Below, one piece after another: positions 16,485-48,196 of a stretch of DNA of 64,000 nucleotides; the first letter of the stretch is position 1; each line of letters begins with the position of its first letter. A model generated the notes under the pieces. That model was not told where the DNA came from. It did not search any database and saw only the letters and a program-made list of their open reading frames with translations. This DNA comes from an uncultured Candidatus Saccharibacteria bacterium. GTDB lineage: Bacteria > Patescibacteriota > Minisyncoccia > Phycocordibacterales > UBA9973. Position numbers and translations under genes: made by a program. The stretch spans positions 3,394-67,393 of the forward strand of contig CAZQAW010000002.1 of the NCBI GenBank assembly GCA_964591445.1. Reading direction: 5' to 3'.

Positions 16485-19292
16485 TTAGTGAGGCAAATGT
16501 GTTGGAGCTACCTGCTTCACAAATCGTGTCGGAGCGAATACTTTTCGTCCAAGCATAATAAGAAGAAGGACAATGAGAATGAATGCGAGCCAGCCGATCA
16601 AAGTATTCGGGAAGAGGCCATCTGCACCAAAGAGTGCAAGTGCTCCCAAGAATCCTACAGCTGATCCGGCGATCGTGTCGATAGAGTATGCAACAACGTC
16701 ATCTTGGATATTGCTTCCATAGACGTAAGCTGCTGTTCCTGAAGCAACAAGGGGGTCACCATTCTTTGCAGTTGTGCGAACGATACCATCGACGAAGAAA
16801 GATTCTTCTTCCTGAGGGTTGAGTGTTCCCACTTCTACCGTAACAGTATTGTCTTTCAAAGAATATTCACCGCGAGTGTTTCGAACGTCTGTAACATTTT
16901 CTGGAAGTTGGATGTGCACGACTACATCACGAAGCGTTGTTCGCTTTGCAATATTTTTGTAAGTAACAACGTAGTCGATCGCATCGCCTGGTCGGTATGT
17001 TTCATAACGACTTTCAATAGTAAGCGTCATGAGAGGAACATTACCTGAACCACCGCCACCTGTGTAGATGATGATCGGATCAGTATTTGTCTGAGCCTGA
17101 GTTCGGAATGACAAGATGTTTCCATAGACTGTTCCGCTTGTGCCATTTGAAGCAACTGCCCGGAAGTAGTACGTCGTATTTGGAGCAAGGTTATAGATCG
17201 GAGCAGAAAAAGACGTATTACCATATACAGTCTGAGCTGTAGTTGTTGCACCAAGAGAGTATGTGCTTCCCCACTGGAACCATACAGATGCTGTGGTAGA
17301 ACCACTGCAATTACCACCAAGAGGACATACGTAATTCATTCCAGAAACATATCCATTCAAGTTTGCACTTGTCTGGCCAACACCAGAAGCAACAAGAGTT
17401 GAAACTGAAAGTTGAGTTTGCTGAACGTAGTTGTATTCGTCGTTGTCTGTTGGGTACGCACAACCTGGATCGTTCATGTCTACATAACCATCGTAGTCGT
17501 TGTCGCGTCCGTCATTACATGCGTAAGTTTGTGGAGGATTGATGATCTGGTTGTATTCATCATTGTCTTTCGGAGATGAACAACCAGGGTCATTCATGTC
17601 GACATACCCATCGCCATCGTTATCAAGGTTGTCGCTACATGCGTATGTCTGTTGATACACAGTTCGCATATTTACAACAAGTGTTCGAGTTTGGATCGCT
17701 CCGCCCAAGATAGATGCAGAAAGTGTAAATGTTGTTGTTCCGTAAATCGGATGTGTGTCGATAGATCCGCTTGTTCCAACTGGTCCAAGAGATGAGATCG
17801 AAACATTTGTACAATCATTTGTTGTCGCCCATGTAAGAGTCGAAATACCGCCGCTGTTTACTGTTGAAGGTGAAGCGTTGAAGCTTGTAATCGCACAGTA
17901 TCCTTGTGAAGGCTGTTGTGTAACATACACTGTGACTGTTTTTGTCTGAGTTGGACCAGGTCCGTCTGCAGTCAAAGTAAATGGTGTTGTCGCGATCAAA
18001 TTTCCTGTTGAAGTTGAACCAGAAAGCATTTGTGAACCAAGATTTGTAATAGAAACTTGATCACAGTTTGTTGTTGTCCAGTACAAGTTTGCAGGGCTAC
18101 CATATGCCGTAGTTGAAGGTGCCGCAGAAAAACTATTGATAACACAGTTCTGAACTTGTGGCTGCTTCACTGTCACCGTAACAGTACGAGTGATAGTTGT
18201 ACCGTTGTTACAGTTTACTGTAAGTGTATACGTTGTTGTATTTGTCGGAGCAACTGTGACAGATCCAGAAAGTCCGGGATGGCTGTTGCCTGAAGTTGGA
18301 GAAATACTTACGCTTGAAGCGTTTGTTGTATTCCAAGAGAGTGTAGTCGTGTCACCTTTGTTGATGTTTGTAGATGATGCAGAAAATGTCGCAGTACATG
18401 CTGGAGGATTTCCTACATTGATACTTACAGTGTCATAAAGTGTGTTGCCGTTTTGACAGTGTACAGTAAGAGTATATGTTTGGTCGTGTTGAAGAGCGCC
18501 AGTCGGCTTTGTTCCAGATGGAACAGTTGCATTACCAAGGCCTGAAATGCTAGCGCTTGTAGCACCAGTTACTGACCATGAAAGTGTAGACGAACCGTTG
18601 TAAGAAACGTTTGTCGGACTTGCATTGAAGTAGTTGATGTTACATGCAGCTGGAGGAGGTGTGTTACCTACTAGAAACTGCGCGCGAACCGTACCTTGGT
18701 GACAGAAAGTCTGGCTTGTCGGGCAAGTAGAATCCGGACCGACTGAGCCCATATTGAATCCTCCGCCAAAAATAGCTGCTGCGTCATTGGCAGAAAGCGG
18801 AGTTCCGTACGTAGAATGTTCAGCGTACCATACCGCAGAACCAGGAACATACGTAAGCGTCTGAGCCTGAGAACCATTGATACTTACTGATGCAGAACCT
18901 GACTGAGGACAGTTTGTACAGTTTGAAGCTGTTACTGAACCAAAGAATGTCTGACTATGAACTGCGCCTGTCGACTGAGGACTCATTCGCACAGTTGTAT
19001 TTTGTGCAGCTACAGGACCAGTGTTGTGATAGTAGACACGAACGGCAATGGTATCTCCTGGATCAGCAGACACAGAACCATACCAAGCCGAAGTTGAATT
19101 CGGATTGTTGGTGACGTTCATCACCTTGACCGTAGCGAGGTCGCCAGGGTTTGTGTTGAAATACGTAGTACTCTGTGCTTGAGCCATGCCAAAAAAAGCA
19201 AAGCCGACGGCAAGCGTTCCCAAGAATACGTATTTCTTTATATTATTGAAATAATTCATATACTTTTTCTTACTGTTTATAATTCTGTACAC
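16485..19292 (-). CDS. Large cell-surface adhesin-like protein: signal peptide, DUF11/CARDB-like N-domain, four tandem ~85-aa Ig-like repeats, two dockerin/TSP3-like Ca-binding repeats, fibronectin-III-like domains and a C-terminal TM anchor.
   Basis: Repeats such as NxSPxxVxxGxxTTLxWxTTNAxxVSIS...TYTLTVxCxNG occur four times. Two CxDxxDNDxDGYVDMNDPGC motifs are present. The C-terminus contains GLFPNTLIGWLAFILIVLLLIMLGRK. Confidence 0.65.
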   Translation of the reverse strand: MYRIINSKKKYMNYFNNIKKYVFLGTLAVGFAFFGMAQAQSTTYFNTNPGDLATVKVMNVTNNPNSTSAWYGSVSADPGDTIAVRVYYHNTGPVAAQNTTVRMSPQSTGAVHSQTFFGSVTASNCTNCPQSGSASVSINGSQAQTLTYVPGSAVWYAEHSTYGTPLSANDAAAIFGGGFNMGSVGPDSTCPTSQTFCHQGTVRAQFLVGNTPPPAACNINYFNASPTNVSYNGSSTLSWSVTGATSASISGLGNATVPSGTKPTGALQHDQTYTLTVHCQNGNTLYDTVSINVGNPPACTATFSASSTNINKGDTTTLSWNTTNASSVSISPTSGNSHPGLSGSVTVAPTNTTTYTLTVNCNNGTTITRTVTVTVKQPQVQNCVINSFSAAPSTTAYGSPANLYWTTTNCDQVSITNLGSQMLSGSTSTGNLIATTPFTLTADGPGPTQTKTVTVYVTQQPSQGYCAITSFNASPSTVNSGGISTLTWATTNDCTNVSISSLGPVGTSGSIDTHPIYGTTTFTLSASILGGAIQTRTLVVNMRTVYQQTYACSDNLDNDGDGYVDMNDPGCSSPKDNDEYNQIINPPQTYACNDGRDNDYDGYVDMNDPGCAYPTDNDEYNYVQQTQLSVSTLVASGVGQTSANLNGYVSGMNYVCPLGGNCSGSTTASVWFQWGSTYSLGATTTAQTVYGNTSFSAPIYNLAPNTTYYFRAVASNGTSGTVYGNILSFRTQAQTNTDPIIIYTGGGGSGNVPLMTLTIESRYETYRPGDAIDYVVTYKNIAKRTTLRDVVVHIQLPENVTDVRNTRGEYSLKDNTVTVEVGTLNPQEEESFFVDGIVRTTAKNGDPLVASGTAAYVYGSNIQDDVVAYSIDTIAGSAVGFLGALALFGADGLFPNTLIGWLAFILIVLLLIMLGRKVFAPTRFVKQVAPTHLPH

Positions 19293-19334
19293 GACTGTAC
19301 ATTTTTAAATCTTCGATACAAGTGCATCAAAAAC

Positions 19335-19372
19335 TTGAAAATGTACAGGGTAGCGAATGTGTTGCTACCCTG
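19335..19372. terminator. Hairpin TACAGGGTAGC-GAATGTGTT-GCTACCCTGTA 3' of the minus-strand gene 19397..20845.
   Basis: 11-bp perfect stem followed by a T-rich run on the minus strand. Confidence 0.45.
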
Positions 19373-19396
19373 TAGTTTACTCTTAAAGCAATCTTT

Positions 19397-20845
19397 TTAC
19401 TTTCTGCTTCCATTATTACTGTTGCGACTACCACCACCATTTCCACCTTGACGAGCCGTAGCTTGTCTTGGGGCTGGGTCTTTCTGTCTAACATTATTGT
19501 TCCTGTTATTATTTTTAGGAGCTTCAACATTTTGAGAAGGTTTACTCAGCCTTACATCGGGAGATGTTTCAACATCTTGGCGACTTGGACCAGCGTTGGT
19601 GTTACTTCGTGGGCGTGGCGCAGAATTGTAATTCTGCTTATGCCCTTTTGGAGTTACATCACTGGTTCTTTCGCGTGACCTTGATGGACCGTTGTAAGCA
19701 CTGGGCTCATTGCCTTTCAAGGTGTTTGCGGTAAGGACTTGATTATCATTTCTTACATCTCTTCTAGGTTTAGTGTAAGAAGAAGCAGAATTTTGATAAC
19801 CAGAACCTCTTGGCCTCGGATCAGGATTAGTATAGCCAGTATTCGTGGTTCCATTATAACCTCGTGGACCACCGCCACCTTCAGTTGGATTACCACCACT
19901 GCCATCAACAGACTCACCACCATTTCCTTCTTGTGGCCAACCGGTTGAAGGGTTGGTAACAGGAGGTGGTGGAGGGTTGTGAATATTCGTAACCTGATTG
20001 TTGTAATAACTATTATCAGTGTACGAATTGTCGATGAAAGTAGGAGCTCCTCCACAACATTGCTGTTGAGGGATATACATTGGTGTATATCCTAAGCTCA
20101 TACCCATACTTACACCAACCGAAGCGGAAGCATACGATTGCCCGCCTGTGTGAACATATACAGGAACCTCACGGTCTCTGTATTCCACAACTGTTTTGGT
20201 TTCAGCATGAGTTTCAGGAGCCGGTGTTTGTTCCGGTCCGTCATCGGCCAAAGGCGTTTGTACGGTTGCACCTGTAGTTACTACGATAAACGGATTACCA
20301 CATTCAAGTGACATCCAGGCAACTTTTGGATAAGTTTTTGAATGACTTATTCCAGGAACTACATTGGGGTCAAACACAAGATAGTGTTCTGTGTAGTGTT
20401 CATTCTTACGTGTTGCACGTGAATAACTACCGACAGTTACCTGATCAAGCTCTACGCGTGTCGTCCAAATCTGAGAAATGGGCTTAGATTGAACATGGCT
20501 GTTTTGCATGAACCACCTCATGTTATCCGGACGAATGTCTAGTCTTTCACCTTTGTCGTTTGTCCAACCATAAAGATCACTGTAATAGCGTAATGTGACA
20601 CTCCCTGTTTGTTCATGCTGTGCACGAAATTTAAGAGTGGGATCATCTAAGGCAGCTTCCAATTGAGAAATTTCTGTACGGCTTTGTTTCGCAACAAAGC
20701 CGTAAGCTTTTACTTGAGTATCGGCATTAACGATACCATAATCTACATAAGGATTTTGTGCGCACAACTGCTTCTGTGAAGCTAAGTTAAATGCGGTAAG
20801 CAATAAAATTGCTTTGATTTGAGTGTAAAAGAACTGATTTTTCAT
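19397..20845 (-). CDS. Secreted protein with a long low-complexity N/P/G/S-rich C-terminal region and a basic tail.
   Basis: Signal peptide MKNQFFYTQIKAILLLTAFNLASQ, an N-terminal globular part, and a C-terminal half dominated by P/G/N/S/T/R. Confidence 0.45.
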   Translation of the reverse strand: MKNQFFYTQIKAILLLTAFNLASQKQLCAQNPYVDYGIVNADTQVKAYGFVAKQSRTEISQLEAALDDPTLKFRAQHEQTGSVTLRYYSDLYGWTNDKGERLDIRPDNMRWFMQNSHVQSKPISQIWTTRVELDQVTVGSYSRATRKNEHYTEHYLVFDPNVVPGISHSKTYPKVAWMSLECGNPFIVVTTGATVQTPLADDGPEQTPAPETHAETKTVVEYRDREVPVYVHTGGQSYASASVGVSMGMSLGYTPMYIPQQQCCGGAPTFIDNSYTDNSYYNNQVTNIHNPPPPPVTNPSTGWPQEGNGGESVDGSGGNPTEGGGGPRGYNGTTNTGYTNPDPRPRGSGYQNSASSYTKPRRDVRNDNQVLTANTLKGNEPSAYNGPSRSRERTSDVTPKGHKQNYNSAPRPRSNTNAGPSRQDVETSPDVRLSKPSQNVEAPKNNNRNNNVRQKDPAPRQATARQGGNGGGSRNSNNGSRK

Positions 20846-21035: not shown

Positions 21036-22739
21036 ATGACCATCCAATTTGACGACGAAAAAGAGGCTCGAAAGCTCGAAGAACTCCGCAAAGTCGAGGA
21101 AGAAGACCTGGTCCGCATCTTGGCCGAGGCAAAATACGGCATTCCGTCCATCGATTTGTCTGGGCAAACCGTTGAAAATGAAGCACTTCGCCTAGTCGAC
21201 GAGCCGGTTGCACGAGCACTCGAAGTTGCACCATTTAAACTCTTGGGCAAGAACTTATATTTGGCAATTCGCACACCAGAAAAAGATGGGTTAGAAGATC
21301 TTCGACAAGAAATTGAGAAAAAGGGCTATGGTGTCGCCTACTACATGGCGTCTCGCGCAAGTTTGGAAAAAGTCTGGGCGCGCTACAAAGAACTTTCGTA
21401 TGCATCAAGCTCAAAAGTGGGCGGTATCGATATTTCTGGTGAAGTTGTCGCAGGTATTGGAGAAAAAGTGCGCACTATTTCGGATGTACAACAAGCTATC
21501 GACGACTCGACAAAAGAAAACAAAACACATCGCATTTCGCATATTCTTGAAATACTTTTGGGTGGAGGAATTGCAATCAACGCTTCTGACATACATATCG
21601 AACCCGAAGAAGCAGACGTGCACGTGCGTTTCCGTCTAGACGGCGTACTTCAAGACGTAATGAAGTTCGACATGCAGACGTACAAACTTTTGAATTCGCG
21701 CATCAAGCTTCTCTCGGGCTTGAAACTGACAACATCTTTGAACGCGCAAGACGGGCGCTTCAGTATTTTCCTCGGCACGGATGAAATCAGCATTCGTACG
21801 TCGATGATTCCTGGCGCGTATGGAGAAAGTATCGTGATGCGTATTCTTAACCCAAAATCTATCCAAGTAAATCTTGAAGACCTTGGCATTCCGGAGAAAT
21901 TGCTTGCAATCATCGACCAAGAAATTAAAAAACCAAACGGGCTCATACTTCTAACCGGCCCAACAGGTTCCGGAAAAACCACAACGCTCTATGCGTTCTT
22001 GCGCAAAATTTACAGCACACAAATAAAAATCATTACGATCGAAGACCCGGTGGAATATCATTTACCAGGCATTACTCAGACACAAACTGAAAATGAAAAA
22101 GGCTACACCTTCCTCGAAGGACTTCGCTCTGCGCTCCGCCAAGACCCGGACGTGATAATGGTTGGAGAAATCCGCGACGACGAAACCGGGAAAATTGCTG
22201 TTGAATCTGCGCTTACTGGACACTTGGTGTTTTCTACACTTCACACCAACAATGCGGCTGGTGTGATTCCTCGACTTATCGATTTGTCGGTCAATCCGAA
22301 AACGCTTGTCTCTGCCCTTTCTCTTTCGATGGCGCAGCGCTTGGTGCGAAAGCTTTGCACGAACTGCAGAAAAGAACGCGACCCGAATGCAGAAGAAAAA
22401 AATAAAATGGATTCGATACTTGCCAAAGCCGAGCAAGATGGAAAGCATGTTGCTGAATACGGAATTACACTCAACGCTCCGTACAAAATCTATGACGCAG
22501 TCGGTTGCGAGAAATGTAACAACACTGGCTACAAAGGCCGCTGCGGTATTTACGAAGCAATCCGCACAGACGAAGCAATTGAAAAACTGATTGTTCAAAG
22601 CCCGAGCGAAAGAGATATAAGAAAAATCGCGCGAAGCCAAGGCATCCTCGACATGCGCGAAGACGGAGTGATAAAAGTGATCAAAGGCGTCACTTCACTT
22701 GAAGAAGTAAAAAGCGTTGTGGATCTGGATGAGAACTAA
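21036..22739 (+). CDS. pilB: Type IV pilus / type II secretion assembly ATPase (PilB/GspE family).
   Basis: N-terminal GspE_N-like domain, Walker A LLTGPTGSGKTTTLYA, Asp and His boxes, and a tetracysteine zinc motif CTNC...CEKCNNTGYKGRCGIYE. Confidence 0.85.
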   Translation: MTIQFDDEKEARKLEELRKVEEEDLVRILAEAKYGIPSIDLSGQTVENEALRLVDEPVARALEVAPFKLLGKNLYLAIRTPEKDGLEDLRQEIEKKGYGVAYYMASRASLEKVWARYKELSYASSSKVGGIDISGEVVAGIGEKVRTISDVQQAIDDSTKENKTHRISHILEILLGGGIAINASDIHIEPEEADVHVRFRLDGVLQDVMKFDMQTYKLLNSRIKLLSGLKLTTSLNAQDGRFSIFLGTDEISIRTSMIPGAYGESIVMRILNPKSIQVNLEDLGIPEKLLAIIDQEIKKPNGLILLTGPTGSGKTTTLYAFLRKIYSTQIKIITIEDPVEYHLPGITQTQTENEKGYTFLEGLRSALRQDPDVIMVGEIRDDETGKIAVESALTGHLVFSTLHTNNAAGVIPRLIDLSVNPKTLVSALSLSMAQRLVRKLCTNCRKERDPNAEEKNKMDSILAKAEQDGKHVAEYGITLNAPYKIYDAVGCEKCNNTGYKGRCGIYEAIRTDEAIEKLIVQSPSERDIRKIARSQGILDMREDGVIKVIKGVTSLEEVKSVVDLDEN

Positions 22740-22741
22740 AA

Positions 22742-22775
22742 AAGACTCGCACAACATTGTGCGAGTCTTTAATTA
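22742..22775. terminator. Bidirectional terminator AGACTCGCACAACATTGTGCGAGTCTTT.
   Basis: 10-bp GC-rich stem between the convergent pilB and the gene at 22780. Confidence 0.6.
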
Positions 22776-22779
22776 TCCC

Positions 22780-24165
22780 CTAAGAACCATATGGCTTTGT
22801 TTTTTCTTCTAAAAACTTTTCAAGTTCAGGAGAATACTTAGTGTTATATGCTAAGTCTTTTTTACGCATGAACTCATCAAATTCAGCAAGAGATTTATCC
22901 CCAAAATTGCGAAACTTTTTAAAATCGCTTCGTTCAAACAAAGTAGCATGCCAAAGATAAGTAATGCCGTTTCCTCTTAAGCAGTTATACAAACGCACAC
23001 TAAGGTCAAAATCATCTATCGATTTGCACAACAACTCAATGCGTTTCTCATTATATATTTCCAAAATGTCCGGTATCTGACTGTCTTTATTGTCCAATTT
23101 TTCCTTAAGATCAGGGTAAATGGCGAGTAATGCTGAAGTTACTTCAATCGGTAAATTACTGTTTACAAGATTTGCTTGGTAAAGATGCTTTGCAATTACT
23201 AACGCAGAAGCTTGGATTCTCTGTTTTTCAGAAAAAATCTGATTCTGCATCCTGTTTCGTAGGTGTAATTGTTTCAGTAATAAATACACTGTACTCGAAA
23301 CTTCATTCCATTCGGGAATAAGTGAAGAAACAATAAGATCTTTCTTCCTTATGAACATAGCGCTTTTTAATGCATTCATCCCTTTTCTATAGAACCGTAC
23401 TCTTGAATAATCAGACATATCTACAAAATATTCTCTGTCAGCTTGCGTCAAAGTCGGGAGTTCAAACTTTTCTTCTATTACAAACTTTATATGTCGAGGT
23501 AAAGTGCTTATTTTATTCTTAAGCAACGCCACAAATTCACTTGAAATATAAGGAGCGGTTTTAAGTTTTGCCTTCTCTATATATTCTTGAGCGATTTTCT
23601 TTACAATTTCTTTTGAGTTGGCAACTTCGTCAGAAAATGGGAAGTATATTCCATTTTTATCATTGTGTATTTTTCTTATACACTCTTCAAAAAAACGAAT
23701 ATGTCTGTACGGTTGTTTGTAAAATAATTGCGGTGCTTCGCCCAAAACAGAACGTACTAACTTTTTTTCTTCCTCGGTAATTTTTTCCTCAAAAGTAATA
23801 GTTTGGTACGAATCTATGACCTGCAATACTCCTTCAAGATAGGCAATGGCTTCATCTAGTTTTAAATAATCAAAAATTGCCTTTTGCATATTTTTGATTT
23901 CTTCACCGCTTATCTGAAAAGCGACTGCAATATCTTTTTCATCCGTCAGACACCAGGCGTAGAGCTTGAAAAGTTCGAGCTTAAGCTGGCGCCCGGTTGG
24001 CTTTGGGCCAGATTCTTCAACTTCTTTTTTTGTGGCAGTTGAATGTTTCCTAATTGCAGATTCGTTTATTTTTAGTATTTGAGAGATTACTCTCATTGGC
24101 AGTCTTAAGAAAAGACAGGTGCGGATAAATACTTTTACTTCGGGTGTAATTTTTATTTTATTCAT
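22780..24165 (-). CDS. Hypothetical regulator: N-terminal HTH plus a C-terminal domain resembling the RNA polymerase alpha-subunit C-terminal domain (alphaCTD). Encoded in an AT-rich stretch.
   Basis: The C-terminus DLSVRLYNCLRGNGITYLWHATLFERSDFKKFRNFGDKSLAEFDEF parallels the alphaCTD pattern LSVRSANCLK..I.TVGDL......L.K..N.G.KSL.EI. The N-terminus has an HTH-like ISQILKINESAIRKH. The local GC content is visibly lower than in the flanking genes. Confidence 0.45.
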   Translation of the reverse strand: MNKIKITPEVKVFIRTCLFLRLPMRVISQILKINESAIRKHSTATKKEVEESGPKPTGRQLKLELFKLYAWCLTDEKDIAVAFQISGEEIKNMQKAIFDYLKLDEAIAYLEGVLQVIDSYQTITFEEKITEEEKKLVRSVLGEAPQLFYKQPYRHIRFFEECIRKIHNDKNGIYFPFSDEVANSKEIVKKIAQEYIEKAKLKTAPYISSEFVALLKNKISTLPRHIKFVIEEKFELPTLTQADREYFVDMSDYSRVRFYRKGMNALKSAMFIRKKDLIVSSLIPEWNEVSSTVYLLLKQLHLRNRMQNQIFSEKQRIQASALVIAKHLYQANLVNSNLPIEVTSALLAIYPDLKEKLDNKDSQIPDILEIYNEKRIELLCKSIDDFDLSVRLYNCLRGNGITYLWHATLFERSDFKKFRNFGDKSLAEFDEFMRKKDLAYNTKYSPELEKFLEEKTKPYGS

Positions 24166-24256
24166 TTGTAAGGAGTTTTTTAGTTTTCTCTATTCTAGCA
24201 TATTTTTTACTTTTGTCAATGTATTGGTGAGTATGAACGTATGTTACAATTTTTGT

Positions 24257-24442
24257 ATGTTTAAGAGTCTTCGAAATCCAAAAGCTTTGGGAGATATCAG
24301 TAAAGATTTGGGTCAAATATTTTTTGCATCTGTTTTTCTCAGTGGCTTGTTAGGCACTGCAGGAAATTACTTTAGTATTGTCACTGGCCTCATTTTATCA
24401 ATTGTATTTTGGTCAGCCTATATAATTACTAGAAAATTATAA
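24257..24442 (+). CDS. Possible small membrane protein (~61 aa), low confidence.
   Basis: The internal Met of ORF 24119..24442 gives a 2-TM peptide. The region is AT-rich, and a second ~33-aa hydrophobic ORF follows at 24446-24547. Confidence 0.25.
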   Translation: MFKSLRNPKALGDISKDLGQIFFASVFLSGLLGTAGNYFSIVTGLILSIVFWSAYIITRKL

Positions 24443-24550
24443 TTTATGAATATACATTTTATGACAAACATGTACATATTGGGCGCATTACTTGCCATAG
24501 CAATAATTCTTTTAATTATCGCTGCAAAGAAAAACACAGATAAGTAAAAC

Positions 24551-24578
24551 AAAAAAGCCACCGTGAGGTGGTTTTTTT
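24551..24578. terminator. Terminator AAAAAAGCCACC-GTGA-GGTGGTTTTTTT.
   Basis: Hairpin with a T-tract after the small ORFs. Confidence 0.5.
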
Positions 24579-24908
24579 GTTTGTGAGAAAAAAGCATTAA
24601 TCTTTAAACAATCCTTACAATGCTATGCACTGGAAGTAATAGATTTTTAAAGGATAGAACCAGAAACTATAAATAGTACCAAAACGTCCTTTGCAAATCT
24701 CTAGAGACCGGAGCCTGATTGCTTAAAGATTGATGCCTTCTTTTGTTGTAAATGACTGGAGACTTTATTATACCTACTCTATACAAAGTGCAAAGTCTGT
24801 GTTGTTAATATCTCTGTGGATTACGTGTGGAAAATGGTATACTACCTCTATAAGTTATTAACAGAACAAAGTTTAGCATAAAAATATTGTATTGTCAAGC
24901 ACCCTCTT

Positions 24909-25910
24909 ATGGACAAAGACGAAGCACAATTGAACAAAAACGAAGACCGCTACCTCGACCACACTTTGCGGCCAAACGCTTGGGATGAATATATCGGCCA
25001 AGAGACTATAAAAGAGAACTTGCGCATACTTCTTCAAGCTGCAAAAGAACGCAACCACCCAGCGGAACACATCCTTTTCTACGGGCCGCCAGGTTTGGGC
25101 AAGACAACACTTGCGCACCTTATTGCCAAAGAAACCGGCCGACAAATGAAGATAACTTCCGGCCCGGCTATTGAAAAAGTCGGAGACTTGGCGTCCATTC
25201 TTACCAACCTTTCTCCGGGCGATATTATTTTCATAGACGAAATCCATCGCTTGAACAAAATGGTGGAAGAAGTGCTCTACCCGGCAATGGAGTCCGGCGT
25301 GCTTGATATCATCATCGGCAAAGGACCGAGCGCTCGCACCATCCAGCTCGACTTGCCGCCGTTTACGCTCATTGCTGCGACAACTCGAATCGCTCTCCTC
25401 TCTTCCCCGCTCCGATCACGTTTTTCTGGTGGAGTGTTTCGACTTGAGTTTTATACCGAAAAACAAATCGAATCCATCATCGCACGTTCTGGCAAAATTC
25501 TCGGTATTACACTTGAAGATGAAGCACTTTCAGAAATCGCAAAACGTTCACGCTTTACTCCGCGAACTGCAAACTACTTTTTGAAACGCTGCCGCGACTA
25601 CGCACAAGTTCACAAAAAAGATTTAGACAAAAAAACAGTCTTTCTCGCGCTTTCGCTTTTAGGTATCGACGAGCTCGGACTTTCGCAAAGTGATCGTCAT
25701 GTACTCGAAGTTATCATTGAAAAATTTAATGGCGGGCCTGTCGGCTTGAACACTATCGCCGCAGCGACGAGCGAAGAAGAAGCGACTATTGAAGAAGTAG
25801 TAGAACCGTATTTAATCCAAAGAGGCTTGCTCGAACGCACTCCCCGTGGACGCATCGCAACCAAAAAAGCTTACGAACACCTGGGTTTTGATTTTATAGA
25901 AAAGGAATAA
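24909..25910 (+). CDS. ruvB: Holliday junction ATP-dependent DNA helicase RuvB.
   Basis: LRPNAWDEYIGQE...ILFYGPPGLGKTTLAHLIA (Walker A), DEIHRL (Walker B/sensor), and a C-terminal winged-helix domain. Confidence 0.9.
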   Translation: MDKDEAQLNKNEDRYLDHTLRPNAWDEYIGQETIKENLRILLQAAKERNHPAEHILFYGPPGLGKTTLAHLIAKETGRQMKITSGPAIEKVGDLASILTNLSPGDIIFIDEIHRLNKMVEEVLYPAMESGVLDIIIGKGPSARTIQLDLPPFTLIAATTRIALLSSPLRSRFSGGVFRLEFYTEKQIESIIARSGKILGITLEDEALSEIAKRSRFTPRTANYFLKRCRDYAQVHKKDLDKKTVFLALSLLGIDELGLSQSDRHVLEVIIEKFNGGPVGLNTIAAATSEEEATIEEVVEPYLIQRGLLERTPRGRIATKKAYEHLGFDFIEKE

Positions 25911-26203
25911 AAAAAGCCCCCGTACATCTTTTCAGACATACGAGGACAAAACATGAAATCAAAACCGTATTTTTAATGGAGACTAAAAATAATGTAAGAA
26001 GAAAGTAGTCCAACAATTGTTAAGATAACAAGAAGAGCAATTTTTTTAGCTTTTGCTGCTGTAGGGTGTTCATTATAGAAGTGAGCGCCCTCTCGTGAAA
26101 TGTGCTTTGCTGACATATGTGCTTGTGTTTTTAATATTATTAAAATTTTGTGAATTAGGATATTTATTTAGATAGTACGCCTGTCTATACAGCTTGTCAA
26201 CAT

Positions 26204-28451: not shown

Positions 28452-28538
28452 ACTTTAGCATAAATGACGCTTTTTGTCTTTTAGATAAAATAAAAACCCC
28501 TCCTTAATACGGAGAGGTCTTTTAAAATTTTAACCTTC

Positions 28539-29255
28539 TTATAGTTCAATAAGTTTTCGCGCAGTTTGTGCTATCTCATATTCTTTTACACAACCACCTG
28601 CTTTTTCCCAACCTTCATTCATGACTATCTTTCCAATTGGCAAAGAAGTTATAACCGGTTGATAGAAAAGCTCAAACTTACTATGAGTTTCACCTTCTTT
28701 TATAAAAGGAAGGTGACAATTTAAAAACGGGATTTGATTAAAAACGAGTCCGTTATTTTCTTCTGCAATATCAAGTATTTTCTTTCTTAAATCTTTAATA
28801 CCTTTCCTAATACCTTTAGGATGAGAATATAGTGGACTACTTATAAAAGCCAGACCTGAGTCACTCATATCCATCATCCACAAAATTGCTTTATAGCGTA
28901 GCTGGGTATAATTTTCACAAGAACGTAAAGTTCTTGATACTTTATATTCCATAATCCAGTTAGCCAAATAAAGAGTTATCCGCCAACTAATCCTTCGGCT
29001 TAAACCAAGATTGGTTTGTTTTTCATACCACTCAGATGAGTTATAAGGGATTTCATAATACCTTGAATAGTATGATTTTTGAGCAATTTTTTGAAATTCT
29101 TTATGAGAATTCAAAAAAATAATTCTCAATAATGGAATTAGCTTAGGTATACGACAAAGAAAAAAGTACTGTGATTCTACGCCAAGTAATATCATTGGAC
29201 TGCATACAAGAAACCCAAGAAGGGTTGTGTACATAATTTCTACTATTGTGTTCAT
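28539..29255 (-). CDS. Hypothetical protein in a distinctly AT-rich block. It has an N-terminal TM and no recognisable motif.
   Basis: Long ORF fitting the intergenic boundaries. Its composition is visibly more AT-rich than the neighbouring tyrS and PBP genes. Confidence 0.4.
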   Translation of the reverse strand: MNTIVEIMYTTLLGFLVCSPMILLGVESQYFFLCRIPKLIPLLRIIFLNSHKEFQKIAQKSYYSRYYEIPYNSSEWYEKQTNLGLSRRISWRITLYLANWIMEYKVSRTLRSCENYTQLRYKAILWMMDMSDSGLAFISSPLYSHPKGIRKGIKDLRKKILDIAEENNGLVFNQIPFLNCHLPFIKEGETHSKFELFYQPVITSLPIGKIVMNEGWEKAGGCVKEYEIAQTARKLIEL

Positions 29256-29367
29256 ACGTATTGGTTTTTAATTTTTTCATTTAAATTATATCATACTAAT
29301 TTTATTAAGTCAAATAATTTATTTTTATGTCACAAAAACATTATTTTCTATGTTACTATTTATACAT

Positions 29368-31875
29368 ATGAAAAAAATTGTATCTTTGTTTGGTAGCTCG
29401 AAACATCGCGTCCGAAATATCATCTTTTCTGTTTTGGGTGTTGGTATTATCTTGGCGAGTTTTCTTTTTATTTGGATCGGGTCACTCGATATTCCCGACT
29501 TCAAATCCTTTGACGAACGACGAGTTGAAAAGTCGACACAGATCTACGACCGCACCGGCGAAGTCTTACTCTACGACATTCACAACAACTACAAACGAAC
29601 AGTTATTCCCTTTTCTGAAATGGGCACAAATATCAAAAACGCAACTGTCGCTGTTGAAGACGCGGAATTTTACAACCATAAAGGTATTCGCATAAAATCC
29701 ATCATTCGCGCGGTGCTTTCAAATTTGAACATTATTAAAAACGGAAATACTCAAGGTGGATCAACCATCACACAACAAGTTATTAAAAATAGCCTCCTTA
29801 CTCAAGACAAAAAAATTACCCGTAAACTCAAAGAGTGGTTTCTTGCAGTAAAGCTTGAACAAGTGATGTCTAAAGAAGATATTTTGGCAATCTATTTGAA
29901 CGAAAATCCTTACGGCGGAAGCATGTATGGTATACAAGAAGCTTCAAGAACATTCTTTGGTAAAGAACCGAAAGATTTAACAATAGCCGAATCGGCCTAT
30001 TTAGCAGCGATACCAAATGCGCCGACATACTATTCGCCTTATGGAAAAAACAAAACAAAACTTGATGAACGCAAAAACTTTATTTTGGGGCGAGAAAAAG
30101 AACTTGGTTTTATAACTCAAGAAGAATATGACACAGCGAAAGCAGAAGTGGTAGAGTTCAAACCGCAAGAACTTGTCGGCATCAAAGCGCCACACTTTGT
30201 GTTTTACATAAAAGAATATTTGGAGACAACATACGGCCCAGACATGGTGGAATATGGCGGATTGAAAGTCATCACAACACTCGACGCAGAACTCCAAGCA
30301 AAAGCGGAAGAAGTTGCGCTTACAAATGCGCTTAAAAATCAAAAAGACTTTAACGCTTCAAATACAGCAGTTGTTATCCTTGATCCAAAAACCGGTCAAG
30401 TGCTTTCGATGGTTGGTTCACGAAACTATTTCGACAAAGAAATCGACGGGCAATTCAACGCCGCAACTGGCTTCCGACAGCCGGGTTCATCATTTAAACC
30501 ATTCGTTTATGCAGCCGCATTTGGCAAAGGCTATACTCCAGAAACGACATTGTTTGATGTACCGACGGAATTTAATGCAAGTTGTTCTCCATATGGCGGC
30601 GGAAAGAATTGCTATATGCCAGACAACTACAACGGCGAATTCCACGGCCCGATGATGCTCAAAAATGCTTTGGCTGAATCCATCAACGTTCCGGCAGTTA
30701 AACTTTTGTATTTGGTTGGTATCAAAGACGCGATCAAAACTGCAAAAGATATGGGTATCAAAACGCTTACCGACCCGGACCGATACGGACTTACTCTCGT
30801 GCTCGGAGGCGGCGAGGTTTCACTTCTTGATATGGCCGGCGCGTATGGAACATTTGCAAACGGCGGCGTTAAACAAAAAACACAATCAATACTTTCTATT
30901 CAAGATTCCAATGGAACAATGCTTGAAGAATACCAGGAAGAAAAAGCCCAAGTACTCGACAAAAATGTCGCGCTTACTATCTCGCAAATACTTTCAGATA
31001 ACGAACTTCGAACTCCAACTTTCGGTACTAATTCAACCTTGAACGTTTCTCCAAACGTTGCCGTCAAAACCGGTACCACAAATGCAAACAAAGACGCCTG
31101 GATGATGGGATATTCAACTTCGGTTGTAGTGGGAGTCTGGAGTGGAAACAACGACAACACTTCGATGAAAAAAGGTTCGACTGTTTCTGGTCCGACGTTT
31201 AGCGCGCTCATGCGCGAAGCGCTGAAGAAATATCCGGAAACGTCTTTTGAAGACCCACTTCCAAATCCTAATTATGATTTTTTGAAACCAGTCATTCGAG
31301 GTAAATGGTTAGGAGGTGAAAGCTTTACGATAGACTCGATTTCCGGAAAACTTGCAACAGAATTTACTCCGACAGAAACTCGGGTTGAAAAAGTGATTAC
31401 CAATGTGCACGATATACTTTACTGGGTAGACAAGAGCGACCCGATGGGTCCGGCACCAACAAACCCAGAAAAGGATTCTCAGTTTAAAAATTGGGAAACA
31501 GCTGCGCAAAACTGGTGGAATAAAAATCAAGGAAGCTACCCTGTTGTAAGCACAGGCAGCGCTCCAACCGAGTATGATGACGTTCACACACTTGCAAGCA
31601 AGCCAACGGTTACATTTATTTCTCCAATAACAAACCAAACAGTTAGTGGTGAAAGCCAAGTGACAGTAAACATTTCCATGACAGGCATGTATCCTTTCAA
31701 AAAAATGGATGTGTTTGTAAACAACGTATTTCTTGGCTCTACTCAAACAAATACTTTTACATTTACACCAAACGATATTGAAGGAATAAGCGAAACAAAC
31801 GAGCTCCGCGTGCTCGTTAAAGACAGTATTTATAATGCGGGTGAAGCAAAAAACACATTCACTGTCACACTTTAG
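29368..31875 (+). CDS. Class A penicillin-binding protein (bifunctional transglycosylase/transpeptidase, PBP1A family).
   Basis: GT51 motifs (EDAEFYNHKGI, GGSTITQQVIKN), transpeptidase SSFKP (SxxK), SIN (SxN) and KTGTTN (KTG), plus an N-terminal TM anchor. The start was refined to MKKIVSLF. Confidence 0.85.
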   Translation: MKKIVSLFGSSKHRVRNIIFSVLGVGIILASFLFIWIGSLDIPDFKSFDERRVEKSTQIYDRTGEVLLYDIHNNYKRTVIPFSEMGTNIKNATVAVEDAEFYNHKGIRIKSIIRAVLSNLNIIKNGNTQGGSTITQQVIKNSLLTQDKKITRKLKEWFLAVKLEQVMSKEDILAIYLNENPYGGSMYGIQEASRTFFGKEPKDLTIAESAYLAAIPNAPTYYSPYGKNKTKLDERKNFILGREKELGFITQEEYDTAKAEVVEFKPQELVGIKAPHFVFYIKEYLETTYGPDMVEYGGLKVITTLDAELQAKAEEVALTNALKNQKDFNASNTAVVILDPKTGQVLSMVGSRNYFDKEIDGQFNAATGFRQPGSSFKPFVYAAAFGKGYTPETTLFDVPTEFNASCSPYGGGKNCYMPDNYNGEFHGPMMLKNALAESINVPAVKLLYLVGIKDAIKTAKDMGIKTLTDPDRYGLTLVLGGGEVSLLDMAGAYGTFANGGVKQKTQSILSIQDSNGTMLEEYQEEKAQVLDKNVALTISQILSDNELRTPTFGTNSTLNVSPNVAVKTGTTNANKDAWMMGYSTSVVVGVWSGNNDNTSMKKGSTVSGPTFSALMREALKKYPETSFEDPLPNPNYDFLKPVIRGKWLGGESFTIDSISGKLATEFTPTETRVEKVITNVHDILYWVDKSDPMGPAPTNPEKDSQFKNWETAAQNWWNKNQGSYPVVSTGSAPTEYDDVHTLASKPTVTFISPITNQTVSGESQVTVNISMTGMYPFKKMDVFVNNVFLGSTQTNTFTFTPNDIEGISETNELRVLVKDSIYNAGEAKNTFTVTL

Positions 31876-32133
31876 TTACCATAAGATAGTGCTAACAGGA
31901 ATATTCTCCTTTTTGAGTTCAGTTAAAATCTCATCCTTTTTTATAAAGAGATGCGATTTTAATGTTTGAGATATTTTAAAATGAATAGTATTTTTTTTAA
32001 TTTCAACTTGTTCTTTTGAGAGCTCAATGTTTGTTACTTTTTTGAGCACGCGAAGAATAGATTCTTTTTGGTCGTCGGCCGAAAAAAGTATTTTTTTGAA
32101 TTGGCCTAAAAAATCGTTCAGTCGGCCGTCCAT
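31876..32133 (-). CDS. Hypothetical small protein immediately downstream of dnaN.
   Basis: The ORF abuts dnaN. No confident motif. Confidence 0.35.
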   Translation of the reverse strand: MDGRLNDFLGQFKKILFSADDQKESILRVLKKVTNIELSKEQVEIKKNTIHFKISQTLKSHLFIKKDEILTELKKENIPVSTILW

Positions 32134-32134
32134 A

Positions 32135-33232
32135 CTAGCGGTTCATTGGCATTACCAAATAAGTAAATGAAGTGTCGCCGGAACCTTGAATAACGAGCGG
32201 TTTATTGCTGCCATTTGAACGGAACACCACGCTGTCTTGGTGAATGGATTGGAAACAGTCAAACACGTATTTATAATTTACATTCAAATCCACCTGTTCC
32301 CCAGAAAGTGCGCCGTCTACCGAAGTAGTATTTTCCCCGACATCATTATTCTTTGCATAGAGTTTTATTTTTTTCTCTTTCGGGTTAATGGAAAGAGTAA
32401 TTTGGTTAAATTTATCTGAAAAAATATTTGAAATTTTAAGCGCGTTCATTGCGTCTTGTTTTAAAATAATTGCTTCGGTCGTATGAGTTTTTGGAATGAT
32501 CTGTTTGTAGTCAGGGAATACGCCGTCGATAACTCGAGAAGTGAGATAAAGCCCTTGTGTTTCAAAAACGATCTGATTTTTACCAATAACCATATTCGCA
32601 TCGGTATCTATATCCTGACACACACGCACTATTTCTAAAATGTTCTTATACGGAATAATGATCGGAGAAAATTCATACGTTTCTTTAGTTTTTATTTTCT
32701 TTTCCGCTAAGCGGAATGAGTCAGTCGAGACAAATACAAGAGAACCTTGATCCGGATACATATACACACTTGAAATTTCTGGCTTTATTTCAGAGAGTGA
32801 TGCGCTGTAGTATACCGCTTTAAAGCCTTCTATAAGCTTTTTAAGAGGGATTGTGATGGATTCACCTTCTACAGTCGGAAGCGTTGGAAAATCTTCGGCT
32901 GGCTGGCCTTTAAGGATAAAAGAATTCTTTTTTGTTATCATTTCCAGGTTTCCATTCTTGAGCTCAATATTTACAACACCTTCGTCATACATAGTAGAAA
33001 AAAGACTTGAAAGAAGTGTTCCAGAAACAGCACAAACACCCTCTTGCTCGACTTTTGCCGGAACTTCAAGTTCGATACCTAAAGAAAGATTTGTTGCGCG
33101 AAGCTTCACACTTTTACCAGCGACCACAAAAAGAATAGATGAAAGCACAGGGAGGGTTAGATTTTTACCCGTTACGCGTTCAGCATTACTTATAGCCTTC
33201 TTTAGTTTTTCAATTGAACACTCGAATTTCAT
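32135..33232 (-). CDS. dnaN: DNA polymerase III beta subunit (sliding clamp).
   Basis: Three-domain beta-clamp pattern beginning MKFECSIEKLKKAISNAERV. It sits immediately downstream of dnaA. Confidence 0.9.
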   Translation of the reverse strand: MKFECSIEKLKKAISNAERVTGKNLTLPVLSSILFVVAGKSVKLRATNLSLGIELEVPAKVEQEGVCAVSGTLLSSLFSTMYDEGVVNIELKNGNLEMITKKNSFILKGQPAEDFPTLPTVEGESITIPLKKLIEGFKAVYYSASLSEIKPEISSVYMYPDQGSLVFVSTDSFRLAEKKIKTKETYEFSPIIIPYKNILEIVRVCQDIDTDANMVIGKNQIVFETQGLYLTSRVIDGVFPDYKQIIPKTHTTEAIILKQDAMNALKISNIFSDKFNQITLSINPKEKKIKLYAKNNDVGENTTSVDGALSGEQVDLNVNYKYVFDCFQSIHQDSVVFRSNGSNKPLVIQGSGDTSFTYLVMPMNR

Positions 33233-33463
33233 ATATGTGTATTTTATTCTTTATTAAATACTATTACTAATACTAGCATGGTGGATATGTGGATTAGTGG
33301 TATAAAACCCTTATTTTGTATAGCTTAATTGATAATTTCATACTGTTTATTTCTTGTTGATAATGTTGACTGTATGTTTATAAATACACATTTTTCATTA
33401 AAGGATATATTCTTTCCACAGATGAGGTATCGGTTGTATACACACTTCACACTCTTTTCCACA
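33233..33463. promoter_or_regulatory. dnaA-dnaN intergenic region: candidate oriC segment with degenerate DnaA boxes and an AT-rich stretch that could be a DNA-unwinding element.
   Basis: GGTGGATAT, TGTGGATTA (33281-33297), TTTTCCACA (about 33456). Long AT-rich run at 33300-33410. Confidence 0.5.
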
Positions 33464-34813
33464 TTATTTAAACAGAGTTCTCAACTGTTCAAGCTCTTGG
33501 ATAAGTCCCGGGTCGGTTTTTAAATCTTTCTTGATCTTTAAACACGAGTGAATGACGGTCGTATGGTCTTTACCACCCAATTTTTGCCCAATAAGAGGGT
33601 ATGAGACATTGAAATCCTCTCGAAGGATATACATAACAAGCTGGCGTGCCTTTACTATCTCCTTTCGGCGTGTCTTGTCATAAATAGCTTCTTCTTCAAG
33701 GTTAAAGAATTCAGCAATAGACTTCACCACATCTTTAATTGCGACATTTTTCTTTGGGCGAATGTTATTTTTGATAAGATTTTTAACTTCAGCCAATGTA
33801 ATTTCGCGATTTTTGAGTTGAGATTGTACTAAAATAGAATTTAAGCTCCCTTCAAGCTCGCGAATACTGCCTTGGATCGATGCCGCCAGGTGTTCAAGTA
33901 CTTCGTCTGTTATTGAAACAGCTGATTCCTTGAGTTTCTCTTTGAGAATTGCCAAACGAGATTCGTATTCCGGCTGGTTGATATCAACGATCATACCCGC
34001 AGAGAAGCGAGACTTGAGACGGTCTTCAAGGCCTGGAATGTAGTTTGGGTGTTTATCTGAAGAAAAGATAATTTGCTTGTTGTTTTCGTATAAAGTATTG
34101 AATAAATGGAATAATTCTTCTTGTGTTTTCTCTTTTGTGGAGATGAATTGGATATCGTCCATAATAAGCACATCGTATTTACGGTACTTTTCTTTAAAAC
34201 TATTTGGTTTGTTGTTTTGGACGGAGTTGATGTAATCGATAGCGAACTTTTCAAGAGTAATATAATGCACTTTTTTCTCTGGATAGCGAGCTTTAATAGC
34301 ATTTCCTATTCCTTGAATAAGGTGTGTTTTTCCGAGTCCTGTATCTCCATAGATAAAAAACGGGTTATACGAGGTTCCAGGGCGGTTTATGATGGCTTGT
34401 GAAGCAGCATGAGCGAGTTCATTGAATGGTCCGACGACAAATGAATTTAAATCATAGCGTGGGTTTAAGTTGTCTTCTTTGTTGATATATAAATCTTGAA
34501 GTGGAAGTTCTCTGTGACTAAAAACACTTTTATCTTCAAAGTGTTCTTGCGCTTTTTGGCGAGCATCGTGTTTGCTAATGATGTACTCTACCCCGCGAGT
34601 ATCCTCCGCAAATGTCATGAGTGTTTTTAAAATAGACTTGTGAAATTTTTTATAGAGCCAGTCTTTAACGAATTCATTCGGAACGCCGATGTAGATGGTA
34701 CCAGCTTCCTGTTTTGCAATAGAGGTGTTCTTGAACCATGTACTAAAGTTGGCTTTAGACATGTCTTTTTCAAGTTCAAGTAAACAATTGTCCCACAGTT
34801 CTTTGGTATCCAT
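33464..34813 (-). CDS. dnaA: Chromosomal replication initiator DnaA. The start was refined to the internal ATG (MDTKELWDNCLLELEKDMSKANFSTWFKNTS).
   Basis: Walker A GDTGLGKTHL, sensor and box motifs, and a C-terminal DNA-binding helix. The ORF-track start is a GTG that lies inside a perfect DnaA box. Confidence 0.9.
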   Translation of the reverse strand: MDTKELWDNCLLELEKDMSKANFSTWFKNTSIAKQEAGTIYIGVPNEFVKDWLYKKFHKSILKTLMTFAEDTRGVEYIISKHDARQKAQEHFEDKSVFSHRELPLQDLYINKEDNLNPRYDLNSFVVGPFNELAHAASQAIINRPGTSYNPFFIYGDTGLGKTHLIQGIGNAIKARYPEKKVHYITLEKFAIDYINSVQNNKPNSFKEKYRKYDVLIMDDIQFISTKEKTQEELFHLFNTLYENNKQIIFSSDKHPNYIPGLEDRLKSRFSAGMIVDINQPEYESRLAILKEKLKESAVSITDEVLEHLAASIQGSIRELEGSLNSILVQSQLKNREITLAEVKNLIKNNIRPKKNVAIKDVVKSIAEFFNLEEEAIYDKTRRKEIVKARQLVMYILREDFNVSYPLIGQKLGGKDHTTVIHSCLKIKKDLKTDPGLIQELEQLRTLFK

Positions 34814-34982
34814 ATGAAGTACACCTATTATAGACTTTAAAAGTATATTTGCAAAATTATCCACAGCTTAATTAACATGTGGATAAGGTGTGGAAAGATA
34901 TGAATAACTTTTCTCACCCCTCGCTTCGCAAGGGAGGAAAATTGAGCTTGTAAAATAAAATATTTTATTGTATACTCCCCTC
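34814..34982. promoter_or_regulatory. Region upstream of dnaA with perfect DnaA boxes TTATCCACA (34857-34865) and TGTGGATAA (34878-34886), plus TGTGGAAAG (34889-34897). It also contains the rpmH promoter.
   Basis: Exact matches to the TTATNCACA consensus in both orientations, 10 nt apart. Classic rpmH/dnaA divergent arrangement. Confidence 0.55.
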
Positions 34983-35117: not shown

Positions 35118-35120
35118 ACT

Positions 35121-48098: not shown

Positions 48099-48196
48099 CG
48101 TGGACAGAATACAACTTTAGTATATCATTTACTCCTTAAGAAAATACGAAAAAACAGTGCAAAACTTTTGTTTTGCACTGTTTTTCTTTGTTTTAT

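Follow-up and report, generated by a model that had tools for sequence, protein, structure and literature searches.

A strain-variable cassette in a CPR chromosome encodes a predicted regulator joining an RNA polymerase alphaCTD to a sigma region 4-derived domain

The upstream half of a bacterial promoter is read by RNA polymerase through two modules, the C-terminal domain of its alpha subunit (alphaCTD) and region 4 of its sigma factor, and it is through these that most activators act; in Escherichia coli, residues D259 and E261 of alpha provide contacts to sigma region 4. Proteins with a single helix-turn-helix (HTH) that resembles sigma region 4 and binds the beta flap of the polymerase have also been described (PMC7824862). 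Here we analyze a gene lying between pilB and ruvB at positions 22780 to 24165, on the minus strand, of a 64,000-nucleotide stretch of a chromosome from the candidate phyla radiation (CPR), referred to below as the window. Its 461-residue product carries an alphaCTD, a degenerate domain derived from sigma region 4, and an N-terminal HTH in a single chain. Judging from its domains, we propose, at a probability of about 45%, that it is a DNA-binding transcription regulator in which the alphaCTD and one or both HTH modules would act as the readers. The modules as such are known; what the literature that we searched does not describe is the way they are combined, or the existence in the CPR of a conserved alphaCTD family other than RpoA. 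An earlier sequence-only reading of this stretch had called the architecture rarely described, and the literature searched indeed holds no account of a protein with an HTH, a sigma region 4, and an alphaCTD (architectures listed in InterPro lie outside that check), its relatives being annotated only as “hypothetical protein.”

The window does contain the open reading frame (ORF), with the C-terminal sequence quoted in that reading. When residues 1-370 were searched exhaustively with phmmer, 1.84 billion cluster representatives yielded 33 matches besides the query's own cluster, the weakest of them fragmentary and the others full-length and aligned from residue 1; the relatives are 344 to 484 residues long, nearly all of them 400 to 484. 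Family-wide counts given below refer to an alignment of 33 sequences, namely, the window protein and 32 relatives. Modeled with AlphaFold2 from the family alignment, the protein has a mean predicted local distance difference test score (pLDDT) of 86.5. In the family, the order of the parts is a probable LuxR-type HTH, a helical domain without known relatives, sigma region 4, a disordered linker, a long helix, a second linker, and the alphaCTD, placed in the window as follows:

22780..24165, minus strand: gene for the 461-residue protein with HTH, helical, sigma4-like, and alphaCTD domains (from the ORF list)
24016..24153, minus strand: NarL/LuxR-type N-terminal HTH, codons 5-50 (from the family profile against the PDB and the model helices)
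23566..24003, minus strand: family-specific all-helical domain, codons 55-200 (from the model; no recognizable relative)
23356..23553, minus strand: four-helix HTH derived from sigma-70 region 4, degenerate here, codons 205-270 (from Pfam matches in relatives and the family profile)
23176..23310, minus strand: long single helix, codons 286-330 (from the secondary structure and pLDDT of the model)
22846..23049, minus strand: alphaCTD, codons 373-440 (from Pfam, PDB, NCBIfam, and fold matches)

The alphaCTD, which the sequence-only reading had recognized from its likeness to the alpha-subunit consensus, is borne out both at the profile level and in structural comparisons with RpoA C-terminal domains. 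The Pfam model PF03118 matches residues 375-431 with E=5.1e-13 and 49 bits, against a cutoff of 23.8, and a phmmer search of all PDB sequences retrieves essentially only RpoA chains (best E=3.4e-9). The model's C-terminal domain fits onto isolated alphaCTD structures with template modeling (TM) scores of 0.85-0.93 and a root mean square deviation of ~1 Å over 66-70 residues. When the whole model is used in a fold search, the list is likewise dominated by alphaCTD matches, and the structural matches include 3n4m, in which an alphaCTD is bound to DNA with CAP, and 3n97, in which an alphaCTD and sigma region 4 sit on UP/-35 DNA. The residues by which alpha contacts DNA, the so-called 265 determinant (R265, N268, C269, G296, K298, and S299; numbering of E. 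coli RpoA, with the reference verified in the PDB as residues 249-329), are all identical to those of E. coli in the window protein (6/6), where R391 is the equivalent of R265. Across the family, they are retained as follows:

R265: identical in 32 of 33 members
N268: identical in 26 of 33 members
C269: identical in 26 of 33 members
G296: identical in 31 of 33 members
K298: identical in 26 of 33 members
S299: identical in 24 of 33 members, with T in 8 others

The acidic 261 determinant is also retained, counterparts of both D259 and E261 being present. The protein thus ends in a bona fide alphaCTD whose DNA-binding determinants are intact. The NCBIfam equivalog models for rpoA (TIGR02027 and the NF0035xx models) match only residues ~343-455, with 30-48 bits against cutoffs of 228-523; the protein is hence not an RpoA. 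Consistent with this, a Pfam scan of the protein finds neither RNA_pol_L nor RNA_pol_A_bac. There is no second alphaCTD in the window or in any of the family loci retrieved.

The ~320-residue middle of the protein, which the sequence-only reading had found unrecognizable, becomes recognizable in part at the level of the family. A profile of family residues 1-285 searched against the PDB aligns solely to sigma region 4, at positions 201-263 (best E=9.4e-8), the chains matched being those of SigA, RpoD, RpoS, FliA, and RpoH; residues 55-200, on the other hand, are still without a relative. With a threshold of E<=0.01, the Sigma70_r4 domain (PF04545) is detected in 8 of the 33 family members; relaxing it to E<=5 gives 12 of 26. 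The best E is ~5e-14, and the core positions F563, I565, I590, L595, and L598 (sigma-70 numbering, verified) are conserved throughout the family. At least four of the five recognition-helix residues are kept in six family members, and some members retain the canonical T/E/R/R/Q. The window protein aligns in the same columns and has kept none of the five (0/5); its region 4 segment searched alone finds no sigma factor and no Pfam match.

The presence of region 4 raises the question of whether the protein might be a complete but extremely divergent sigma factor to which an alphaCTD has been appended, with residues 55-200 representing unrecognizable regions 2 and 3. The ~200 helical residues ahead of region 4 are indeed similar in size to regions 2 and 3 of FliA-type sigma factors, and the order of the domains, helical domains followed by region 4, is the same. 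However, the Sigma70_r2 domain (PF04542) finds no match in any of the 33 members, and region 3 is matched in a single one, with E=0.15. Moreover, the family profile aligns to region 4 alone in every solved sigma factor, the best sigma match in a fold search with residues 1-285 is 6kop_F at E=5.8, and an N-terminal LuxR-type HTH is not a feature of sigma factors. With regions 2 and 3 not found, we reject this reading, which we hold to be very improbable; since these regions are absent, the protein is neither a sigma factor nor an RpoA, and it does not qualify as a sigma-type initiation factor.

A different role for the region 4 module would be that of an accessory subunit or appropriator of RNA polymerase, in which the sigma4-like domain docks on the tip of the beta flap and tethers an additional alphaCTD and HTH, redirecting the polymerase to a distinct class of promoters. 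The beta-flap-binding, single-HTH sigma4-like proteins (PMC7824862) would be the precedent for such docking. The pattern of conservation in the family, in which core and pocket positions of region 4 such as F563, I565, and L598 are kept and the DNA-reading residues are not, is what would be expected of a protein contact, and the flexible linker ahead of the alphaCTD mirrors that of RpoA. Against this, the same conserved positions are also plain residues of the fold core, sigma regions 2 and 3 are undetectable, and the gene is missing from sister strains (see below) and is hence no component of the core polymerase. We accordingly regard such a subunit as possible, if doubtful.

At the N terminus, evidence for the HTH again comes from the family. 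A profile of residues 1-200 matches the DNA-binding domain of NarL in the PDB at positions 11-50, with E=0.002 (range, 0.002-0.014), and more weakly FixJ (E=1.8) and a DNA-invertase. Weak matches of relatives to HTH_23, HTH_7, HTH_38, and HTH_28 are consistent with an N-terminal HTH, and one family member alone matches the Pfam GerE domain. In the model, residues 8-41 form a three-helix unit (helices 8-19, 24-31, and 35-41; pLDDT >90), and P23 is invariant across the family. The N-terminal HTH claimed by the sequence-only reading thus stands at the family level, by way of the NarL profile and the three modeled helices; residues 1-285 of the window protein taken alone yield no Pfam match. No receiver or autoinducer-binding domain is matched, the HTH being at the extreme N terminus.

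Between the two HTH modules, residues 55-200 form a confidently modeled helical domain (pLDDT mostly >90; predicted TM score [pTM] of the N-terminal model, 0.79) that has no match in Pfam, NCBIfam, or PHROG and no significant Foldseek relative in the PDB or BFVD. It carries the conserved motifs LxLLKLYAW and YLxLxxW, and Y69, L101, G112, and P176 are near-invariant. Beyond the sigma4-like domain, the model shows a long helix at residues 286-330 between disordered linkers at 273-284 and 360-370. In one heptad register, 62% of the a/d positions are L, I, V, or M, suggesting a possible oligomerization helix.

This helix bears on the idea that the protein is a nucleoid-associated or silencer-like factor, whose alphaCTD would bind the AT-rich minor groove nonspecifically and whose long helix would oligomerize, such that it coats AT-rich DNA, including acquired DNA, as H-NS-type proteins do. 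The minor-groove A/T-binding determinant is intact, the helix ahead of the alphaCTD has a partial heptad pattern, and the gene itself resides in AT-rich accessory DNA in a window that contains further AT-rich variable cassettes. Nevertheless, two HTH modules argue for sequence specificity, the long helix belongs to the least conserved part of the protein, and the gene is dispensable between close strains. On balance, we consider a silencer-like role unlikely.

The family is restricted to the CPR, and the literature searched does not describe it. Its members are found in Candidatus Nomurabacteria and Paceibacterota, along with one metagenome-assembled genome labeled Saccharibacteria; scans of metagenomes for the family gave no match. 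The alphaCTD is present in all 33 aligned sequences and is the most conserved part, with a mean pairwise identity of 40%, followed by the N-terminal HTH (27%), the helical domain (26%), the sigma4-like domain (18%), and the linker, which includes the long helix and is the least conserved (12%). The relatives are flanked by housekeeping genes, such as those for EF-P, recA, and ftsK; tuf and the S10 operon; RRF and RseP; and gatB and obg, with no general conserved gene neighborhood across the family loci. Two relatives, P0002 and P0006, do share an S6-SSB-S18, EF-P, RecA, and FtsK neighborhood, in which EF-P does not occupy the same place with respect to the family gene. Here the family proteins are 34% identical and their neighbors 44-77%, from which we conclude that the family gene is fast-evolving, with its location kept in that clade.

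Such rapid divergence might also be read as decay, the gene being a decaying or chimeric remnant that joins a piece of rpoA to other sequence, has no function, and owes its low GC to relaxed constraint. The degeneracy of region 4 in the window protein and the low GC of the gene would fit this. However, the full-length architecture is kept without truncation in ~33 divergent clusters, the six contact residues of the alphaCTD are conserved, the model is confident (pLDDT 86.5), and the reading frame is intact both in the window and in the sister strain L015. A functionless remnant is, in our view, hardly credible.

In the window, the gene forms part of a cassette of ~1.8 kb whose presence varies between strains. 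The cassette and its surroundings are laid out as follows:

21036-22739, plus strand: pilB (T2SSE, E=9e-117)
22740..24575, no strand: accessory cassette of ~1.8 kb, flanked by the pilB stop codon and conserved GTTTGTGAGAAAAAAGCATT (from the strain comparison)
22741..22770, no strand: left-end terminator-like hairpin of 13 pairs, which would serve the convergent pilB (plus strand) and alphaCTD gene (minus strand) (from a terminator scan)
24547..24582, no strand: right-end terminator-like hairpin with A- and T-run flanks and 16-nucleotide arms that are 94% complementary, at or just inside the cassette end (from a terminator scan)
24909-25910: ruvB

Two sets of strains define it. The first is L015, a JGI contig from a sister strain that aligns to the window at 21639-24761. 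In its pilB part, 87 of 1101 positions differ (7.9%), with 71 synonymous and 8 nonsynonymous codon changes; from 22757 to 24761, there are 5 differences in ~2000 positions, and the cassette is 99.75% identical. The step in divergence lies within the loop of the 22741-22770 hairpin (Fisher p=8e-34), the last two differences ahead of the near-identical tract being at 22755-22756. The second set comprises five strains whose RuvB is 99-100% identical to that of the window, L016-L018 from JGI and L019 and L020 from Logan. All five lack the cassette: their alignments to the window stop at 22743-22746 and restart at 24539-24548, and the gap between pilB and ruvB is ~357-364 bp, versus 2169 bp in the window. 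Where their contigs span the genes, pilB is 4.3-6.1% and ruvB 3.4-4.1% divergent. After the pilB stop, these strains have a terminator hairpin, with an A-run before it and a T-run after it, and then ATTTGTGAGAAAAAAGCATT, the hairpin directly 3' of pilB being CCGCCA-CC-TGGCGG. The cassette of the window fits exactly between the pilB stop and ATTTGTGAGAAAAAAGCATT, with a terminator-like hairpin at either end; the right-end hairpin holds the position of the ancestral pilB terminator, with a different stem sequence.

Because the cassette is near-identical in L015 while pilB differs by 8%, we favor recent exchange over ancestral presence followed by repeated loss. The comparison supports passage of the cassette between strains, probably by recombination, with mobility genes of its own absent: the three cassette ORFs contain no integrase, transposase, or recombinase domain in Pfam, NCBIfam, or PHROG, no terminal repeats or target duplication are present, and no direct or inverted word of >=9 nucleotides is common to the two boundaries. 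Homologous recombination through the conserved flanks would be the simplest mechanism of exchange. The sequence-only reading had suggested horizontal acquisition, possibly from a phage or plasmid, while remarking on the absence of an integrase. The acquisition is upheld by the five close strains without the cassette and by its near-identity in L015 beside a 7.9%-divergent pilB, and the lack of an integrase holds for all cassette ORFs. The proposed source is not supported: phage and plasmid searches returned only alphaCTD-level matches to ordinary rpoA genes, neither viral contigs nor viral structures (BFVD) gave a match, and all family members are on CPR chromosomes with housekeeping genes around them. 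On these grounds, we reject an origin from a phage or plasmid.

The AT-richness on which that suggestion had leaned is real. The stretch at 22780-24908 has 33.5% GC, below every 2129-bp segment sampled over the 64 kb, and the cassette has 33.6-33.8%, versus 43.0% in the remainder of the window. The gene itself, at 34.5% against an ORF mean of 43.1% (standard deviation 3.9, z=-2.2), is the third lowest of 52 ORFs. In every family locus examined, however, the family gene lies below its flanks in GC, by 1.4-9 points. Low GC is therefore a family trait and alone no proof of recent transfer; we reject the inference from the one to the other as insufficient, and the conclusion of transfer consequently rests on the strain comparison. 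The extent assigned to the island is also only partly right: variability reaches 24575, and 24576-24908, ~330 bp that had been included in it, is a conserved spacer outside the cassette, common to the strains that lack it.

Divergent from the alphaCTD gene, across an AT-rich intergenic region of 91 bp (24166-24256), the cassette carries a tandem pair of small ORFs that ends at the right-hand hairpin:

24257..24442, plus strand: 61-residue ORF, pointing away from the alphaCTD gene, for which two hydrophobic helices are predicted; candidate gene
24446..24547, plus strand: 33-residue ORF with one strongly hydrophobic helix, 3 nucleotides past the 61-residue ORF (maximum Kyte-Doolittle 15-residue mean, 3.4); candidate gene
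24192..24219, minus strand: sigma-70-type promoter-like site, TTGACA-16-TGnTAGAAT, upstream of the alphaCTD gene (11 of 12 consensus matches)

Both small ORFs are present and hydrophobic, as the sequence-only reading had it. An alternative ATG at 24233 would lengthen the first to 69 residues. The JGI gene call on L015 includes the 61-residue ORF and not the 33-residue one. Between the window and L015, the former has one synonymous change and the latter none, too few to test selection. Neither has a family match or a counterpart beside other family members, and they are best treated as putative genes. The promoter-like site is a consensus match alone, the count of such sites in the region not exceeding that in shuffled sequences.

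Taking these observations together, we suggest how a DNA-binding regulator of this design might work. Its alphaCTD would read the A/T-rich minor groove, as at UP elements, and one or both HTH modules would read neighboring sequence in the major groove. The 3n97 complex is among the structural matches, and hence both modules can sit adjacent on DNA; a single chain would thereby recreate the arrangement of alphaCTD, sigma region 4, and DNA seen at a UP-element promoter. Once bound, the protein could either occlude the site or recruit RNA polymerase. Contact with the polymerase could go via the acidic 261-type patch to region 4 of sigma A; alternatively, the sigma4-like domain could bind the beta flap in the manner of T4 gp33 and the phage minimal sigma factors. 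The simplest first target would be its own 91-bp AT-rich region, which it shares with the divergent pair of small predicted membrane peptides. What the analysis shows is the domain composition, the conserved alphaCTD contact residues, the family with its taxonomic range, and the edges and strain polymorphism of the cassette; that the protein binds DNA, where it does so, which way it regulates, and whether it touches the polymerase are what we infer from the domains and their setting, as is the gene status of the small ORFs.

Several observations weigh against the proposal of such a regulator. The window protein has all five -35-reading residues replaced, and its region 4 segment cannot be recognized by itself, so that one of the three proposed DNA readers may be structural only. 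For residues 55-200, one-third of the protein, no relative is known, and the real activity could reside there. The geometry between domains is not confidently predicted (full-protein pTM, 0.58). Lastly, the small ORFs are not conserved beside any homolog, and a pairing of regulator and target would therefore be specific to the cassette at best.

The same small ORFs invite another interpretation, namely, that of a conflict system. Some phage factors target the alphaCTD or sigma region 4, among them ADP-ribosyltransferases that act on R265 and AsiA-like appropriators. The protein might then serve as a decoy or sensor copy of the alphaCTD and sigma4-like readers that intercepts such factors, with the two small membrane peptides as effectors, thereby constituting a new abortive-infection or immunity module in the CPR. 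Strain-variable presence, recent exchange, fast evolution outside the contact surface of the alphaCTD, low GC, and the tiny hydrophobic ORFs would all fit this pattern, against which stands the lack of conservation of the small ORFs beside other family members. All three cassette proteins have 0 matches in PADLOC-DB at E<=1, and assignment to a known defense system was rejected as unsupported. We judge a new conflict system decidedly unlikely and retain the regulator as the preferred reading.

The window as a whole is chromosomal and typical of CPR/Patescibacteria, with polA, fpg, a class I aminoacyl-tRNA synthetase gene, PBP1, and ruvC in addition to dnaA and dnaN at 32-35 kb, and many large ORFs without a Pfam match. 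The closest named relatives of its RuvB (85-89% identity) are from Candidatus Pacebacteria and Nomurabacteria, and the host chromosome is that of an ultra-small CPR bacterium of the Paceibacteria type. The cassette lies ~10 kb from dnaA. The genes dnaN (32135-33232, minus strand) and dnaA (33464-34864, minus strand) fall in a region of low GC (31500-35500; 0.34-0.40) that presumably includes the chromosomal origin.

The pilB-ruvB spacer next to the cassette has features of its own. On the minus strand, the element at 24545-24762 contains a branched hairpin of ~155 nucleotides closed by a 26-nucleotide imperfect inverted repeat (arms, 24588-24613 and 24717-24742), preceded by a promoter-like site, TTTGCA-16-TATAAT (24794 to 24767), and followed by a terminator hairpin. 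Its minimum free energy is -66.7 kcal/mol, versus -36.8 kcal/mol in shuffles (z=-7.6, 0/200). Four strains whose ruvB is 3.4% divergent have no differences in it (0/155), and L020 has two C-to-U changes only, one of which retains a G.U pair, whereas through the other a C that was bulged becomes part of a U-A pair. The element has no match in Rfam and is not repeated in the window, for which a multicopy miniature inverted-repeat transposable element was rejected; it is a candidate small RNA of ~200 nucleotides or DNA-level element. Between this element and ruvB, two independent assemblies break within 45 bp (24762-24806), L015 ending at 24761 and the Logan contig L014, which is 100% identical to the window, starting at 24807; this stretch adjoins a 15-nucleotide direct repeat (24769-24783 and 24838-24852).

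Other spots in the window also vary between strains. A second AT-rich variable cassette (28486-29322; GC, 0.29-0.34) lies between the aminoacyl-tRNA synthetase gene and PBP1 and holds an ORF of 238 residues (28539-29255, minus strand; 32.4% GC) without a Pfam match; it is present in L019 and replaced in L016 by a segment of ~460 bp with a gene for a 125-residue DUF559 (endonuclease-like) protein. The ruvB-ruvC spacer (25976-26121) is a third such spot, being ~146 bp in the window and L019 and ~377 bp with a 71-residue ORF in L016; L017 and L018 have a 125-residue ORF and L020 a 155-residue one. These spacer ORFs of L016-L018 and L020 are on the minus strand and have no Pfam match. Very large ORFs without a significant Pfam domain (935, 482, 1025, 757, 1196, and 913 residues) occupy 16485-20845 and 45021-61895. 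In the one of 482 residues (19397-20845), a long tail of low complexity is enriched in N, G, S, P, and R; between strains, 19578-20473 is ~90% identical and 20474-20730 is unalignable, with neighboring genes at ~96%. Finally, a 77-bp stretch at 36929-37004 matches, at 88% and in the opposite orientation, an intergenic segment of L016 (231-305) beside polA at another genomic position and may be a short dispersed repeat or small RNA.

If the regulator reading is true, a natural protein that carries both upstream-promoter modules outside the polymerase and is conserved across CPR lineages would be a new design of transcription regulator, a stand-alone reader of the upstream promoter that might compete with the polymerase, pre-mark sites for it, or recruit it. 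To our knowledge, CPR bacteria have very few recognizable transcription factors, and the family may explain part of this missing regulation. The locus also offers a base-resolved example of an accessory cassette, free of mobility genes, transferred between CPR strains at a terminator.

When compared with known systems, the cassette resembles integrative mobile elements in being present or absent at a fixed locus among close strains and differs from them in having no mobility gene, terminal repeats, or target-site duplication. As for its protein, the N-terminal 45 residues match the NarL/FixJ/LuxR (GerE) domains at the profile level, marginally so at E=0.002; unlike in those proteins, the HTH stands at the N terminus, unaccompanied by a receiver or ligand domain, and the window protein alone gives no match. 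With T4 gp33 and the “minimal sigma factors” of jumbo phages (PMC7824862), the family shares a sigma4-like HTH outside a full sigma factor, which in the phage proteins works through contacts of the region 4 type; those proteins, however, are small, phage-encoded, and devoid of an alphaCTD or second HTH, and no sequence or structural similarity of the cassette protein to viral proteins was detected. With sigma-70 factors, the family shares a true region 4 HTH, including a canonical recognition helix in some members, whereas it lacks region 3 as well as region 2, which functions in binding the core and melting the -10 element, and in the window protein the -35-reading residues have all been replaced. 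With RpoA, the protein shares the alphaCTD fold over ~70 C-terminal residues, the 265 and 261 determinants, and the flexible linker; it differs in having no alpha N-terminal domain, which serves in dimerization and core assembly, in a conserved Trp at the position of RpoA G279, and in being encoded by a gene that is dispensable between strains. The two upstream-promoter modules of the holoenzyme that meet on DNA in the ternary complex of 3n97 are in this family combined in cis.

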